Shown here one piece after another: positions 3,261 through 55,627 of a stretch of 64,000 nucleotides of DNA. The DNA lies in contig NZ_DASWTF010000027.1 of NCBI RefSeq assembly GCF_036402275.1, forward strand, positions 86,183-150,182. The letters run 5' to 3'. The stretch is from Steroidobacter sp. Lineage in GTDB: Bacteria; Pseudomonadota; Gammaproteobacteria; Steroidobacterales; Steroidobacteraceae. A model generated the notes under the pieces. It was not told where the DNA came from, did no database searches, and saw only the letters and a program-made list of their open reading frames with translations. The translations under genes and the position numbers were made by a program. The first letter of the stretch is position 1; the number at the start of each line of letters is the position of its first letter.

Positions 3261-4112
3261 GTGACTTCTAGAGTCGCTGTACTGCAAATGACCTCGGCTC
3301 CCGAGGTCGATGCCAATCTCACAACGGCGCGCGTCCTGTTGGAACGCGCTCGCGCCGAAGGCGCGACGCTGGCGGCGCTGCCTGAAAATTTTGCCATCAT
3401 GGGCCGCAAGGAGACCGATAAGGTCGCCGTCGCGGAAGCTCCTGGCGAAGGCCCCATACAAGCGTTCCTCGGGCACTGCGCGCGCGAGCTGGGTCTGTGG
3501 ATCATCGGCGGCACCATTCCGTTGCGGGTCGAGAACGAGCCCGAGCGTGTCGCGTCGGCGTCGCTGGTATTCGATGAGCGCGGTCGCTGCGTGGCTCGTT
3601 ACGACAAGATCCATCTGTTCGACGTCGCCATTCCCAATCGAGAAGCGCCCGACAGGAACGAGCGCTATCGGGAATCCGCCACTGTCGCTCCAGGCAGTCA
3701 GCTCACCGTGGCGCCTACACCGGCAGGTCGCGTCGGCATGGCCGTTTGCTACGACGTGCGCTTTCCGGAGCTGTTCCGGATGTTGCAGGAGCAGGGGGCG
3801 GAAATCCTTAGCCTGCCTTCAGCGTTTACCGCACCCACCGGCAAGGCGCATTGGGAATTGTTGGTGCGGGCCCGGGCGGTCGAGAATCTGTGCTACGTCC
3901 TGGCCCCAGCTCAGAGCGGTATTCATCCGAACGGACGGGAGACCTGGGGAGACTCGCTGATCGTGGATCCGTGGGGCCAGGTCGTTTCCCGAGTCGCCGA
4001 GGCCGGTCCCGGCCTTGCAGTTGCGGAAATCGACCGCACTGTGCAACAAGAACTGCGCGAACGATTCCCGGCGCTGTCGCATCGGCGTTTTTCGATCGCG
4101 CCGCCCGCCTGA
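3261..4112 (+). CDS. Carbon-nitrogen hydrolase (Nit1/deaminated glutathione amidase-like)
   Basis: [14 protein letters not shown] and VCYDVRFPE motifs (Glu-Lys-Cys triad); conserved yhdP-nit-tldD order. Confidence 0.9.
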
Positions 4113-19615: not shown

Positions 19616-19689
19616 TGGGGGATCGTCTAGCGGTAGGACTACGGACTCTGACTCCGTCAACCTAGGTTCGAATCCTAGTCCCCCAACCA
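19616..19689 (+). tRNA. tRNA-Gln(CTG)
   Basis: 74 nt TGGGGGA...TCCCCCAACCA; anticodon loop CTCTGAC, T arm CCTAG-GTTCGAAT-CCTAG region, encoded CCA. Confidence 0.97.
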
Positions 19690-20151: not shown

Positions 20152-21210
20152 ATGATCGACTCCTTGTACCCGCTGATCCGTCCGCTGCTGTTTTCGATGG
20201 ATGGAGAGCGCGCGCATGCCGTGACATTCGACATGCTGGAGATGGCGCACTCGTTGGGCTTGCTCGGCAAGCACGAGTCACGACCGGAAGACGGTGTGAC
20301 GCTCATGGGTTTGCGATTTCCGAATCGCGTCGGGCTCGCGGCCGGGCTCGATAAAAACGCGAAGCACATCGACGCGCTCGGTGCATTGGGTTTTGGATTC
20401 ATCGAAGCGGGTACGGTGACGGCGCAGGCACAAACAGGTAACGCAATGCCTCGGCTGTTTCGACTTCCGGAAGCGAATGCGTTGATCAATCGCATGGGCT
20501 TTCCGAATGAAGGCGCCGAAGCGATTGCCGAGCGACTCGCGCGTCGCAAGTTCAAAGGTGTGTGTGGCATCAACATCGGCAAGAACGCCGTGACTCCGCT
20601 GGAAGATGCCGCGCGAAATTACGTCGAATGTTTTCGTGTGGTCGCGCCTCACGCCGACTATGTAGCGGTGAACGTATCGTCACCGAACACGGCCAACCTT
20701 CGTCAGCTGCAACAGGTCGATCAGCTGCGTCCCATTCTCGATGCGCTGCTCGAAGCTCGCGTGCAACTGATCTCAAGCTCGGGCAAGTCGCTGCCGATAC
20801 TGGTGAAGGTGTCGCCCGATCTGGCGAGCGAAGATCTCGCCGCCATCGCGCGACTGGTTCGCGAGTTGCGTATCGATGGAATGATCGCGACCAACACCAC
20901 CATCACGCGCGATGCGGTGAAGGGCGTGCGTAACAGCGAACAGCAGGGAGGATTGAGCGGCGCGCCGATTCGTTCGTTGGCGCTGAAGGCCATCCCCGTT
21001 CTGCGTGAGCATCTGGGGAGCGGGACGCCGCTGATCGCGGCGGGTGGAATCGATTCAGGTGAGGCGGCGGTTGCTGCCTTGCAGGCAGGTGCAGATCTGA
21101 TTCAGATCTACACCGGCCTCATCTATCGCGGTCCCCGACTGGTCACGGAGATCCGTGCCGCGGTGTCCGCATTCACAGCGTCTGCACGCCCGACGGCGAA
21201 CCCAGGATGA
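20152..21210 (+). CDS. pyrD: Quinone-dependent dihydroorotate dehydrogenase
   Basis: [55 protein letters not shown]. Confidence 0.97.
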
Positions 21211-21826
21211 GCAGATCGGCGGGTCGCCGTGCGAACAAGCCAACGGTGACCACGCCGGCGAGCTGATTGATGTCGCTCTCCATCTTCACCGGATCGACGA
21301 TGCTCAAGCCGTGCACGTCGAGGATTTGATTGCCGTTGTCGGTGACGAAGCCTTCGCGATAAACCGGTTGTCCCCCTAAAGCAACCAATTGTCGGGCGAC
21401 ATACGAGCGCGCCATCGGAATCACCTCCACTGGCAGCGGGAATTTGCCGAGCACGCTCACCAGCTTGGACTCGTCGGCGATGCAGATGAAGCGCCGCGAT
21501 GCGGCGGCGACGATCTTTTCGCGGGTCAGCGCACCCCCACCGCCCTTGATCAGGCGTCGGTGACGATCCGACTCGTCGGCGCCGTCTATGTACAGGTCCA
21601 GCTCGCCGGCGGTGTTGAGGTCGAGAACGTCGATGCCATGACGCTTCAGACGCGCCGTCGAGCGCTCCGAACTGGAGATCGCGCCTCGAATGCGCACCTT
21701 TTGCGCAGCCAACGCATCGATGAAGCGATCGACCGTGGACCCGGTTCCGATGCCGAGGATGGAGTCCTCCTCGACGTGGGCGAGGGCGGCGAGGGCGGCT
21801 TGCTGCTTCAGTTGATCGGCGTTCAT
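21173..21826 (-). CDS. rpiA: Ribose-5-phosphate isomerase A
   Basis: [35 protein letters not shown]; start moved to ATG 21826. Confidence 0.97.
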
Positions 21827-21936
21827 GGTGTGGGGCTCAGGCGTGTGATGCGAGAAAAGGGCTATTTTCCTAGCTCCGGAAACGACTGTGCCCGCTTTCG
21901 CGGGCACAGTCTTCATCATCATCTACTCAGAAGAAC

Positions 21937-22005
21937 TTACTTCTTCTTGGCAGCCTTCTTCTTGCCGCCTTTCTTCTTCGCAGACTTCTTTGCTTTCGTT
22001 GCCAT
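21937..22005 (-). CDS. Small Lys-rich basic peptide MATKAKKSAKKKGGKKKAAKKK (22 aa), not in ORF track
   Basis: ATG at 22005, TAA at 21937-21939, GGAG ribosome-binding site 10 nt upstream, Lys codons mostly AAG. Confidence 0.65.
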   Translation of the reverse strand: MATKAKKSAKKKGGKKKAAKKK

Positions 22006-22136
22006 GATACTAGATCTCCATGTCGAGTTAGTCCGGGCGCAGTATATACATAAATTAAAAATGGCAAGCAAGAGGTGCGTGCGATTTTGTTGTGCCGGTT
22101 CTCATCGCGAGCCCTCGTCGATGAGCACTGCGACGC

Positions 22137-22598
22137 TCATTCGAGCGACTCGATGAAGCTCCATTCGCTCTTCGTCACCGGTGTGATCGACAGTCGATTG
22201 CCGCGTTTGAGCACGATCATGTCCTTGAGCTTGCCGGCGGCGTGCTTACGCAACTCCTCGAGCGGGATCACCCTGTCGAACTTTCTGACGAGCTTCACAT
22301 CGACCATGTACCAACGCGGCTCGTCGGGATCGCTGTCCGCATCGTAGTGATCGTGCTTCTTGTCGAACTGCGTGGGGTCGGGATAGGCCTCGCGTTGTAC
22401 GGCGGCAACGCCGGCGATTCCAGGGATATCGCAGCTGGAGTGATAGAAGAACACCAGATCGCCCTGCTTCATCTCGCGCAGATAGTTGCGCGCCTGGAAA
22501 TTACGCACGCCGTCCCAGCTCGTGGTGCTGTTCTTGGCGCGCGCGAGGTCATCGATGCCGAACGTCGAAGGTTCGGACTTCATCAACCAATAGTTCAT
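22137..22598 (-). CDS. EVE-domain protein
   Basis: MNYWLMKSEP, WDGVRNFQARNY, FFYHSSC, PRWYMVDV, RLSITPV. Confidence 0.95.
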   Translation of the reverse strand: MNYWLMKSEPSTFGIDDLARAKNSTTSWDGVRNFQARNYLREMKQGDLVFFYHSSCDIPGIAGVAAVQREAYPDPTQFDKKHDHYDADSDPDEPRWYMVDVKLVRKFDRVIPLEELRKHAAGKLKDMIVLKRGNRLSITPVTKSEWSFIESLE

Positions 22599-23242: not shown

Positions 23243-23432
23243 GGCGCTACCCGCCTGTGCCGTCATGAGCCATTGCTCTCGACACGGAGCAATAGGTGGG
23301 ACGCAGCCGTAGCAGCTAAGGCTTTCCGTTCGAGACGGACTTGCACACCGCTGCTACTGAACCGAATCCCTGGGGTATTAACGTTAGGGTCGAGAGGTAA
23401 CCCGACACATGTCGAACACCGCAGGCAGCGCC
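23243..23432 (-). ncRNA. ssrS: 6S RNA
   Basis: Between zapA and ygfA, the canonical position; ends pair (GGCGCTGCCTG with CAGGCGGGTAGCGCC); contains GAAAGCCTTAG resembling the E. coli 6S GAAGCCTTAA; about 190 nt, boundaries approximate. Confidence 0.85.
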
Positions 23433-49513: not shown

Positions 49514-49918
49514 ATGCGGGTCAAGTCGAGCCTGGCCAGTTACGTCGCAGAACAACTCGCGCCGCTCGGGCGCATTTCCAGTCGTGCGATTTTCGGCGGC
49601 GTCGGTGTATTCATCGACGAGCGCCTGCTCGCCATCGTCATGGGCGACAAGCTGTACCTGCACACCGACAAGAGCAACCTCGATGATTATGTCGCGCGGG
49701 GCATGCCGCAGTTCAAGCCGTATCCGAACGCGTTCGACCTCACCACCGATCATCACGAAGTGCCGCCGGAAGTCGTTCAGGACGCCGAGCAGTTGAAGAT
49801 CTGGGGCGAACGCGCGCTCAACGCGGCTATCGAGTCGGCGCGCGCCAAACAAATGGCGGGCATCGAGCGCTCGCGCCACATGAAGCAGGCCAAGCGGCGC
49901 GAGAAAGAGAAGAAATAG
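49514..49918 (+). CDS. TfoX/Sxy N-terminal domain protein
   Basis: SRAIFGGVGVF, DKLYLHTD, VPPEVVQD.EQL..W...AL. Confidence 0.8.
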   Translation: MRVKSSLASYVAEQLAPLGRISSRAIFGGVGVFIDERLLAIVMGDKLYLHTDKSNLDDYVARGMPQFKPYPNAFDLTTDHHEVPPEVVQDAEQLKIWGERALNAAIESARAKQMAGIERSRHMKQAKRREKEKK

Positions 49919-54991: not shown

Positions 54992-55627
54992 ATGGCCAAG
55001 CAGAACCGTCGCACTCAGTCGCGTGACAAAACGCGCGCGTCCAAGTCCACTCGCAGTTCGCAGAAGAAGTCGGTGCGCAAAGCCCGCCGGCCGTTGCGCA
55101 AAAAACCTGCCGTGTCCTTGGCAACCTCGCCGCTGGTCGAGGCGCGTAATTCGACGATCCACGGTCGCGGCGTGTACGCCGTTGCGCCGATCAAGAAGGG
55201 CACGCGGATTCTCGAATATCTCGGCGAACGCATCTCGCACGGCGAAGCGGACGCGCGCTATGAGGAAAAGGGCGACGACGACGGCCACACGTTCCTGTTC
55301 ATCGCCAGCAATCGCACCGTGATCGACGCCGGCGTGAACGGCAACGACGCGCGCTTCATCAATCACAGCTGCAATCCGAATTGCGAGACGGTGATCGAGA
55401 ACAGCCGCGTGTTCATCGACGCCATCCGTAACATCAAACCGGGCGAGGAGCTGGGCTACGACTATCAGCTCACCTGGGAAAGCACCGACGATCCGGCGGA
55501 GCTGGCGTTGTACGCCTGCCGCTGCGGCGCCAAGAAATGTCGCGGCACCATGCTCGACAAGGAGCCGACCGACAAGCGCGAGGCGGATAAGAAAAAGGCC
55601 AAAGCCAAGAAGAAGGCTCGCAAGTAG
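54992..55627 (+). CDS. SET-domain lysine methyltransferase with post-SET motif and basic tails
   Basis: IHGRGVYA, RFINHSCNPNC, GEELGYDY, CRCGAKKCRG. Confidence 0.93.
   Translation: MAKQNRRTQSRDKTRASKSTRSSQKKSVRKARRPLRKKPAVSLATSPLVEARNSTIHGRGVYAVAPIKKGTRILEYLGERISHGEADARYEEKGDDDGHTFLFIASNRTVIDAGVNGNDARFINHSCNPNCETVIENSRVFIDAIRNIKPGEELGYDYQLTWESTDDPAELALYACRCGAKKCRGTMLDKEPTDKREADKKKAKAKKKARK

Follow-up and report, generated by a model that had tools for sequence, protein, structure and literature searches.

Between an EVE-domain gene and rpiA, a 64,000-nucleotide stretch of Steroidobacter sp. DNA (contig NZ_DASWTF010000027.1; the whole stretch is called the window below) contains an open reading frame (ORF) of 22 codons that is dominated by lysine. 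Is this micro-ORF a gene, and if so, what could so short and so basic a product be for? A preliminary description, made from the letters of the window alone, had proposed an unannotated gene at this place. The proposal held: the frame, its ATG, the GGAG in front of it, the promoter and a hairpin behind the stop codon are conserved in relatives, and the substitutions carry a codon-position signature. The micro-ORF is very probably a real gene and not a chance ORF, because it is conserved across loci, a conclusion that a single sequence would not have given. The explanation that we favour as a whole, with modest confidence, is that of a coding micro-gene in an operon with rpiA, the product being a repeat-collapsed H1-like polycation. 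The elements concerned are the following.

Positions 21937..22005, minus strand: micro-ORF of 22 codons with a TAA stop, product MATKAKKSAKKKGGKKKAAKKK, read from the sequence.
Positions 22041..22071, minus strand: promoter with TTGCTT, an AT-rich spacer and TnTATATACT, from the alignment of 20 loci.
Positions 22006..22040, minus strand: GC-rich discriminator GCGCCC and 5′ untranslated region (UTR) of about 30 nucleotides (nt), from conserved alignment columns.
Positions 21878..21911, minus strand: hairpin GACTGTGCCCGC-GAAA-GCGGGCACAGTC followed by GTTTCC, unique in the window, −25.6 kcal/mol.
Positions 21173..21826, minus strand: rpiA (ribose-5-phosphate isomerase A), NCBIfam NF001924 (RpiA), E=1.1e-88.
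Positions 22137..22598, minus strand: EVE-domain gene (Pfam EVE, E=2.7e-56), a conserved upstream neighbour given for context.

The micro-ORF starts with ATG at 22005..22003, continues for 21 codons and stops with TAA at 21939..21937, between the EVE-domain gene (22598..22137) and rpiA (21826..21173), all on the minus strand. Lysine accounts for 12 of the 22 residues (55%), Asp and Glu are absent, and the remainder consists of Ala, Gly, Ser and Thr plus the start Met. The Shine-Dalgarno (SD) sequence GGAG lies at 22019..22016, 10 nt upstream of the ATG. Further upstream, the −10 element TATACT (22046..22041) is preceded by TTGCTT (22071..22066), at a distance of 19 nt from TATACT and 17 nt from TATATA, and by TTGCCA at 15 nt from TATACT. 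Frame, lysine count, lack of acidic residues, GGAG and both candidate −35 spacings thus agree with the preliminary description, which had also called the promoter imperfect; this was fair, as a consensus promoter and terminator scanner calls neither this promoter nor the hairpin. A promoter site of this type occurs once in the window. The discriminator GCGCCC occupies 22040..22035 and is followed by a conserved GGACTAAC (22034..22027). The leader also holds two GGA motifs 15 nt apart (22016-22034), GGACUAAC and ACAUGGAG, the latter overlapping the SD; they are conserved across the clade, and such a double-GGA layout is typical of CsrA/RsmA-controlled leaders.

Conservation of the frame and of its ribosome binding site, the check that the preliminary description had proposed, was examined in two sets of relatives, and both elements were kept in 26 genome loci and in at least 120 metagenome loci. 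The genome sample comprised 80 loci around EVE homologues from species genomes (L numbers denote individual loci); the EVE protein of the window and its S. agaridevorans counterpart share 89% identity. A Lys-rich ORF follows the EVE gene on the same strand in 23 of the 80 loci, and the total of 26 includes a frameshifted copy (L017), a copy cut at a contig end (L038) and a locus where only the promoter precedes the contig end (L019). Across genome and metagenome loci the ORF spans 14 to 36 codons, the 36-codon form being a frameshifted variant, and the genome relatives encode, among others, MATKKKSSKKKGGKKKAAKKK, MAAKAKKAKKKVAKKKAAKKK, MATKKKAKKKASKKK and MAKKRKVKRKVAKKRGKKKTAKTKTRRKKR. In the genome codon alignment, 7, 5 and 16 of 21 columns vary at codon positions 1, 2 and 3 (entropies 5.7, 4.1 and 16.0), and the alternative reading frames gain stops in relatives. 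Over the 20 aligned loci TnTATATACT is invariant and TTGCTTG nearly so, and the 5′UTR pattern GGACTAAC..CGACA..GGAG followed by ATGGC is conserved in the DNA alignment. The short-ORF loci group together in the EVE tree, in what is essentially a single clade of 29 rows (support 97/74); one rearranged locus and contig-end truncations are the exceptions. The 196-nt unit from the −35 box to the T-run is 99-100% identical to that of L001, L002 and L018, where the EVE and rpiA DNA is 88-91% identical, and 89-91% identical to that of L003, L007 and L010, where the flanking genes reach 72-82%; the intergenic DNA on each side of the unit is merely 43-82% identical.

A few loci of this sample deserve separate mention. 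The EVE proteins of L051 (CALQLF020000143.1, labelled 'Candidatus Planktophila lacus', Actinomycetota; rpiA and the micro-gene are present) and of L079 (CAMDWI010000007.1, labelled 'Klebsiella pneumoniae') cluster in the tree with Steroidobacterales-like/Arenicellales-like EVE proteins, and both are probably mis-binned contigs of metagenome-assembled genomes. The frameshifted versions of the micro-ORF in L017 (3145-3255) and L128, MAKKRKVKRKVGKKKAAKKSRRRRPAAKRSNSFEPNS and MAAKAKKAKKKVAKKRPLRKSKPSKVINCARVSGHSCF, are explained either by real decay or by misassembly of a stretch rich in homopolymers.

Metagenome contigs were then scanned with a motif lying wholly upstream of the ATG, TGTATATACT-N5-9-GGAYTAAC-N6-16-GGAG, which returned at least 120 loci; the metagenome counts given from here on are those among the matches listed. 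An ATG follows 2-15 nt after GGAG in 120 of 120 loci, and 106 of the 107 complete ORFs are Lys-rich with 14-33 amino acids (aa), the remaining one being frameshifted. The commonest of the 45 different peptide strings, some of which are cut at contig ends, are MAKAKKKAKKKAAKKK (33 loci), MAAKAKKAKKKVAKKKAAKKK (20 loci) and MAKAKKKAKKKASKKK (13 loci). Variable columns by codon position number 3, 4 and 14 of 15 in the 16-aa class (33 distinct DNA sequences) and 5, 4 and 17 of 20 in the 21-aa class, and the pairwise codon differences of the 16-aa class comprise 2211 synonymous against 467 non-synonymous ones. The Lys codons are AAG (923) and AAA (241), with solely A or G at the third position, and the stop codons alternate between TAA, TAG and TGA. 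At the non-Lys positions, acidic, aromatic and bulky residues are excluded in more than 130 sequences, the total of acidic residues being a single Asp in one metagenome ORF. Judged from these substitutions, the signature is that of a translated frame under purifying selection, not of a conserved RNA motif.

The same data bear on the possibility that the locus encodes a non-coding or dual-function small RNA (sRNA) of about 150 nt, for instance an Hfq or CsrA sponge acting through (AAG)n and GGA, in which the ORF would be incidental or secondary. The unit as a whole is conserved above its neighbouring genes, with synonymous sites almost unchanged in the closest relatives, the GGACTAAC motif and the hairpin core are invariant in sequence, two GGA motifs are present, and the fold has a z-score of −6.4. 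However, substitutions show a three-base periodicity, all indels are in frame, and the ATG, the SD and the position of the stop are conserved. At the third base of the AAR codons only A and G occur, a restriction that Lys codons would impose and ARN motifs would not. Moreover, most of the low fold energy is due to the terminator and to non-conserved, low-complexity AAG/CUU pairing; the pairings GGCGGC/GCUGCC and AAGAAG/CUUCUU of the minimum free energy fold are not conserved among the aligned sequences. A search of Rfam 15 gave no family at gathering score, the best being STnc350 with 24.4 bits against 60 (E=0.34). We consider an sRNA as the primary product very improbable.

Is the micro-gene transcribed? 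Four RNA or metatranscriptome run indexes contain a 181-nt stretch in full, and 18 contain at least 57% of it. The 6S RNA in this window, used as a control, shows a similar presence, and the EVE gene next door does not exceed 16% in any RNA run index. This comparison is confounded: conservation of the unit exceeds that of its neighbours, so that relatives add words to the index. From these indexes the micro-gene looks transcribed and its transcript apparently abundant. The transcription start is a predicted one. The TATACT −10, the weak −35 and the discriminator, with a mean G+C of 86% over at least 120 metagenome loci, provide hints on regulation. Translation in vivo, the abundance of the peptide, its binding partners and its mode of action are predictions made from the DNA.

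The hairpin behind the micro-ORF, which the preliminary description did not mention, has a GC-rich stem of 12 base pairs (bp) at 21911..21884 followed by GTTTCC, and is the sole copy in the window. Its core GTGCCCGC/GCGGGCAC is kept wherever enough downstream sequence is present, with one mismatch in L148. The outer stem shows compensatory variants (CTGT/ACAG, CAGT/ACTG, AGAT/ATCT, CCGA/TCGG, ATAT/ATAT, AGAA/TTCT), and the loops are of 4-8 nt, mostly GNRA. In 50 of 82 loci, T occupies at least 5 of the 8 positions behind the hairpin; the run is weaker in the other 32, and the window has only 4 T. Placed between the micro-ORF and rpiA, the hairpin is most simply read as an intrinsic terminator that leaks or as a 3′ structure that stabilises the RNA. 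We also observed that the inner 8 bp GTGCCCGC/GCGGGCAC show no compensatory change in more than 140 loci, in contrast to the freely varying outer 4 bp and loop. An invariant inner stem is unusual for a mere terminator and might reflect sequence-specific recognition, possibly by the peptide itself.

The micro-gene is tightly linked to rpiA. EVE upstream and rpiA downstream are found together in 80 metagenome loci, and rpiA lies downstream in 92 of the 92 loci with room for it, three of them without EVE. In many loci an ATG with a plausible RpiA N-terminus stands merely 18-26 nt past the hairpin, and the SD of rpiA comes directly after the T-run, as in L152 (ttttttCCGGAGGtcgcacATG); in the window the spacer between hairpin and rpiA is 57 nt and poorly conserved. 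A promoter does not fit into a gap of 18-26 nt, and transcription of rpiA must therefore pass through the hairpin. On this layout the micro-ORF and rpiA must share one transcription unit, and the micro-gene would not be fully stand-alone. Escherichia coli has comparable operons (rpsU-dnaG-rpoD and rplKAJL-rpoBC), in which a strongly expressed first cistron is followed by a partial terminator or a protective hairpin within the operon. The micro-ORF operon is alike in its strong promoter, small first gene, stable hairpin and housekeeping gene expressed by read-through; it differs in that the first cistron has 22 codons only.

Other readings of the region between the stop codon and rpiA were tried and rejected. 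A start of rpiA at 21922 (ATGATGATG, an ORF of 21173-21922 running through the hairpin) has an ATG that is not conserved in relatives; by comparison with these, the true start is the ATG at 21826, and annotating the longest ORF would give a wrong start. Also discarded was a second small ORF that crosses the hairpin, as the loop turns into a stop in relatives and the ATG is not conserved. A sigma-54 site in the 3′ half of the hairpin (GGGCAC-N5-TTTC) lacks the −12 GC, and its 'GGCAC' varies with the compensatory stem changes. Pairing of CCGGA at the 5′ end of the messenger RNA (mRNA) with UCCGG/UCUGG after the T-run is possible in many loci; in many, too, the 3′ partner is just the SD of rpiA. 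Both sides of this pairing are conserved, there is no true covariation, and we do not claim it.

The layout raises the question of whether the frame could be a regulatory leader ORF for rpiA, in which translation of the Lys codons tunes termination or mRNA stability and the peptide itself is functionless. A promoter, a short ORF of one codon type, a hairpin with a T-run and then, in many loci, the closely spaced SD and ATG of rpiA are what such a leader would have, read-through is needed, and rpiA follows even where EVE is missing. The leader attenuators of his, thr, pheA and leu likewise place a short ORF of one codon type, a terminator hairpin and a structural gene on one transcript. In contrast to these, no anti-terminator pairing, exclusive and at fixed spacing, was found here by inspection or folding of the window and the aligned sequences. 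The hairpin begins anywhere from about 18 to 79 nt past the stop codon, some clades have additional, inserted hairpins, and the gene that follows has nothing to do with lysine; to our knowledge rpiA has no link to lysine supply, and no metabolic connection is known between lysine and ribose-5-phosphate isomerase. Furthermore, the long orthologues described below do not adjoin rpiA but possess their own strong terminators. Four points make a classical attenuator unlikely: the missing anti-terminator, the variable spacing, the lack of a known link between lysine and rpiA, and the position of the long orthologues away from rpiA. The residues barred from the non-Lys positions, with one Asp in more than 130 sequences, also point to selection on the chemistry of the peptide. 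We regard a leader with a functionless peptide as unlikely.

What, then, would the peptide be? Exact look-up of six short-form sequences, MATKAKKSAKKKGGKKKAAKKK among them, gave zero matches in a collection of 15 billion proteins, and therefore the micro-gene appears to be unannotated everywhere. Profile searches with the 22-aa and 30-aa forms gave no match at E<=1 in Pfam and NCBIfam, phmmer found 0 matches at E<=10 for the same forms among all Protein Data Bank (PDB) chains, ribosome structures included, and a search of the literature on lysine-rich bacterial microproteins found nothing relevant. In size and charge the product recalls bS22, eL41, mS38, bL37 and bTHX, a group of highly expressed proteins of only 24-35 aa that gene callers overlook and in which basic residues make up more than 50% (PMC10618245); bS22 (about 30 aa, 61% Lys and Arg) had no annotation in Borrelia, and those who discovered it predicted that it would turn up elsewhere (PMC10618245). 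A ribosome-bound polybasic microprotein of this type, seated in a pocket of the ribosomal RNA (rRNA), would be a previously unseen ribosomal protein of Steroidobacterales. With 22 aa and 55% Lys the product lies within the range of such proteins (up to about 35 aa, more than 50% Lys and Arg), its transcript looks highly abundant from the RNA-run indexes, and the invariant MA start and strong SD are those of highly expressed genes. GC-rich discriminators mark the stringently controlled promoters of rRNA and ribosomal-protein genes in E. coli, and the 86% G+C discriminator resembles them.

Three observations, however, fit poorly with a ribosomal role. The Pfam, NCBIfam and PDB searches gave no sequence similarity to any protein of this kind. 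The family varies in length from 14 to 33 aa within one clade (45 strings), with orthologues of 105-149 aa, a poor fit to a fixed rRNA pocket. Finally, bS22-type proteins have fixed length and sequence and occupy a defined rRNA pocket with helices that contain hydrophobic residues, bS22 being near-invariant within its genus, whereas the family studied here consists of just Lys with Ala, Ser, Gly, Thr and Val and ranges from 14-33 to more than 100 aa. A ribosomal protein therefore seems quite unlikely.

A closer likeness was found in the H1-like Lys-rich proteins, such as AlgP/PhaF with KPAA units, Hc2, and the Burkholderia/Bordetella proteins of NF038053. The window peptide and more than 130 relatives share with the Hc2 (PF07382), NF038053 and AlgP tails a composition of Lys with Ala, Ser, Thr, Val or Pro and the absence of acidic residues, and with the class short periodic units of the KKKxx/KPAA type and likely disorder. 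They differ in having just 22 residues in the window, about three KKKxx units, no folded domain and a transcript shared with rpiA. The long array of tens of repeats over at least about 100 aa that characterises H1-like proteins is missing from the 22-aa product and from the 14-33-aa forms, and was found only in the longer syntenic proteins that follow, which look like members of the class.

The 80 EVE loci were rescanned for larger Lys-rich ORFs. A Lys-repeat protein of 105-149 aa is encoded downstream of EVE on the same strand in L030 (Chromatiales), in L048, L055 and L069 (Ectothiorhodospiraceae-like) and in L053, L072 and L073 (Thiohalophilus, Thiohalophilaceae). These proteins start with MATKKKAKKK, MAAKKKAKKK or MAVKKK, are of the type MATKKKAKKKVAKKK..., and contain KKKAKKKVA and KRKKAAP repeats. 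A further long gene is cut at the contig end (L077), and in L028 (about position 3490) the promoter and SD of the long form are followed by a run of N, where the repeat gene is masked or unassembled. The short promoter TTGCTTGCCATTTTTAATTTATGTATATACT can be aligned with the long one TTACTAGCATTTTTATTTTAGTTGGCTATACT, the TATACT −10 and the AT-rich spacer being common to both. Short and long genes alike have a UTR of about 30-45 nt followed by GGAG and ATGGC, the region from SD to ATGGC(A)AC being shared. The long gene of L030 ends with a GGCCCGC-GCAA-GCGGGCC hairpin that has the same core as the hairpin of the micro-gene. L080, which belongs to the short-ORF clade, carries a long form (MATRKTGARKK...) with an initiation region GGAGATC-N7-ATGGCAAC like that of the window, and the 29-30-aa forms of L015 and L020 resemble the N-terminus and C-terminus (..KKKTA..RRKKR) of the long form with the internal repeats missing.

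Because of the synteny, the shared termini and the regulatory similarity, the micro-ORF is probably a repeat-collapsed positional orthologue of H1-like Lys-repeat proteins; the long forms equally could be expansions of the micro-ORF. The preliminary description had compared the peptide with H1-like tails and proposed that it binds nucleic acids. The comparison receives indirect support from the syntenic 105-149-aa proteins, with their identical N-terminus and alignable promoter, and the binding itself is a prediction by analogy. In the searches with the long forms, Pfam and NCBIfam returned a single match that is not significant (NF038053, E=1.3), a 120-aa form retrieved six weak, unrelated matches in a search for homologous proteins, and exact look-up of six long sequences gave zero matches, which may merely reflect different start calls. 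In front of the long-form promoters, 0.5-0.8 kilobases (kb) of AT-rich DNA without a convincing ORF separate them from EVE (L053:2965-3760; also L048, L055, L069, L072 and L073). This DNA contains short overlapping frames of at most 66 aa and many aaaatttt-type tracts, and may be a large regulatory or curved-DNA region.

Very small and highly basic proteins are also known from another gammaproteobacterium. ScvA of Coxiella burnetii has about 30 aa and is rich in Arg and Gln rather than Lys and Ala. ScvA and Hq1 bind DNA, are small and basic, and are enriched in the small cell variant of C. burnetii (PMC4766238). The likeness is one of description, and a further difference is that ScvA is developmentally regulated in an intracellular pathogen. 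For AlgP, the C-terminal KPAA domain is needed for the spacing of polyphosphate granules, and KPAA peptides as well as a domain fragment bind DNA (PMC9239181).

Taken together, a free polycation resembling an H1 tail is, by analogy, the best-supported function of the micro-ORF product, and a fairly probable one. The conserved promoter of the micro-gene would give a transcript of about 150 nt with a strong SD and the 22-codon ORF. This short transcript would end at, or gain stability from, the GC hairpin, and a fraction of transcription would pass the hairpin into rpiA; in the resulting operon the first cistron would be in large excess. Removal of Met before Ala at position 2 follows the general specificity of MetAP, and the product would then be ATKAKKSAKKKGGKKKAAKKK, a free polycation with a net charge of about +12. 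It is predicted to bind polyanions electrostatically and without sequence specificity, be they nucleoid DNA, RNA and ribosomes or polyphosphate, in the manner of the Lys-rich tails of AlgP, PhaF, Hc2 and histone H1. Charge density would be the selected property, because acidic, aromatic and bulky residues are excluded while the length varies freely.

Besides the confounded RNA-index comparison, several points weigh against a repeat-collapsed polycation. The constant association with rpiA and the succession of short frame, hairpin and gene also fit a purely regulatory leader. Low-complexity sequence defeats ordinary alignment statistics; the case for homology of the short and long forms is built on synteny, termini and promoter similarity. 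No H1-like model of Pfam or NCBIfam matches the short or the long form, a test that is weakened by the composition filters of HMMER. Finally, a peptide of 14-22 aa may be too weak a binder of polyanions or may be degraded too quickly.

A bolder proposal would join these elements. Steroidobacterales, which are abundant in soil and on roots, would make a free histone-H1 tail of 14-33 residues at very high level from a growth-coupled operon that includes rpiA; the peptide would neutralise new nucleic acid or rRNA while RpiA supplies ribose-5-phosphate. It would be the shortest polycation encoded by a genome to have been linked to H1-like proteins by orthology. The peptide might in addition bind the invariant hairpin on its own transcript, in a feedback like that of lambda N and boxB which sets the read-through ratio. 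We consider this joint proposal a long shot.

The preliminary description had also named a SET enzyme of the window as a possible modifier of the peptide. This SET-domain protein is encoded at 54992-55627 (Pfam SET, E=5.4e-25) and has a Lys-rich C-terminal tail, ...DKKKAKAKKKARK. The chlamydial enzyme cpnSET methylates the H1-like protein Hc1 (PMC3980110), and by analogy an action of the SET protein on the micro-ORF peptide is a reasonable suggestion. In a scan of the 64-kb window, the micro-ORF apart, short Lys/Arg-rich frames came up only in the tail of the SET protein and as one 12-aa frame with acidic residues (49880-49918).

The surroundings of the micro-ORF are otherwise ordinary. The gene order is the usual one of zapA, 6S RNA, the gene of 5-formyltetrahydrofolate (5-formyl-THF) cyclo-ligase, and EVE. 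The 6S RNA at 23244-23430 is canonical (Rfam, 83.5 bits) and lies between zapA and the 5-formyl-THF cyclo-ligase gene, and a transfer RNA gene at 19616-19686 (Rfam, 62.7 bits) stands directly after rpsI.

If the peptide is made, every annotation pipeline has missed a highly expressed gene, which belongs to a micro-gene family found throughout an order-level clade of bacteria common in soil and the rhizosphere and can be seen in metatranscriptomes. It would also tie the bacterial H1-like Lys-repeat proteins to the tiny polybasic microproteins known from ribosome structures. The number of repeats could have dropped from more than 20 units to about three under purifying selection, which would mean that charge, and not length or fold, is selected. 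For the bacteria themselves, rpiA in Steroidobacter-like species must be expressed through an internal hairpin, and cultured Steroidobacter would offer a testable system for the in vivo targets of free oligo-lysine peptides.

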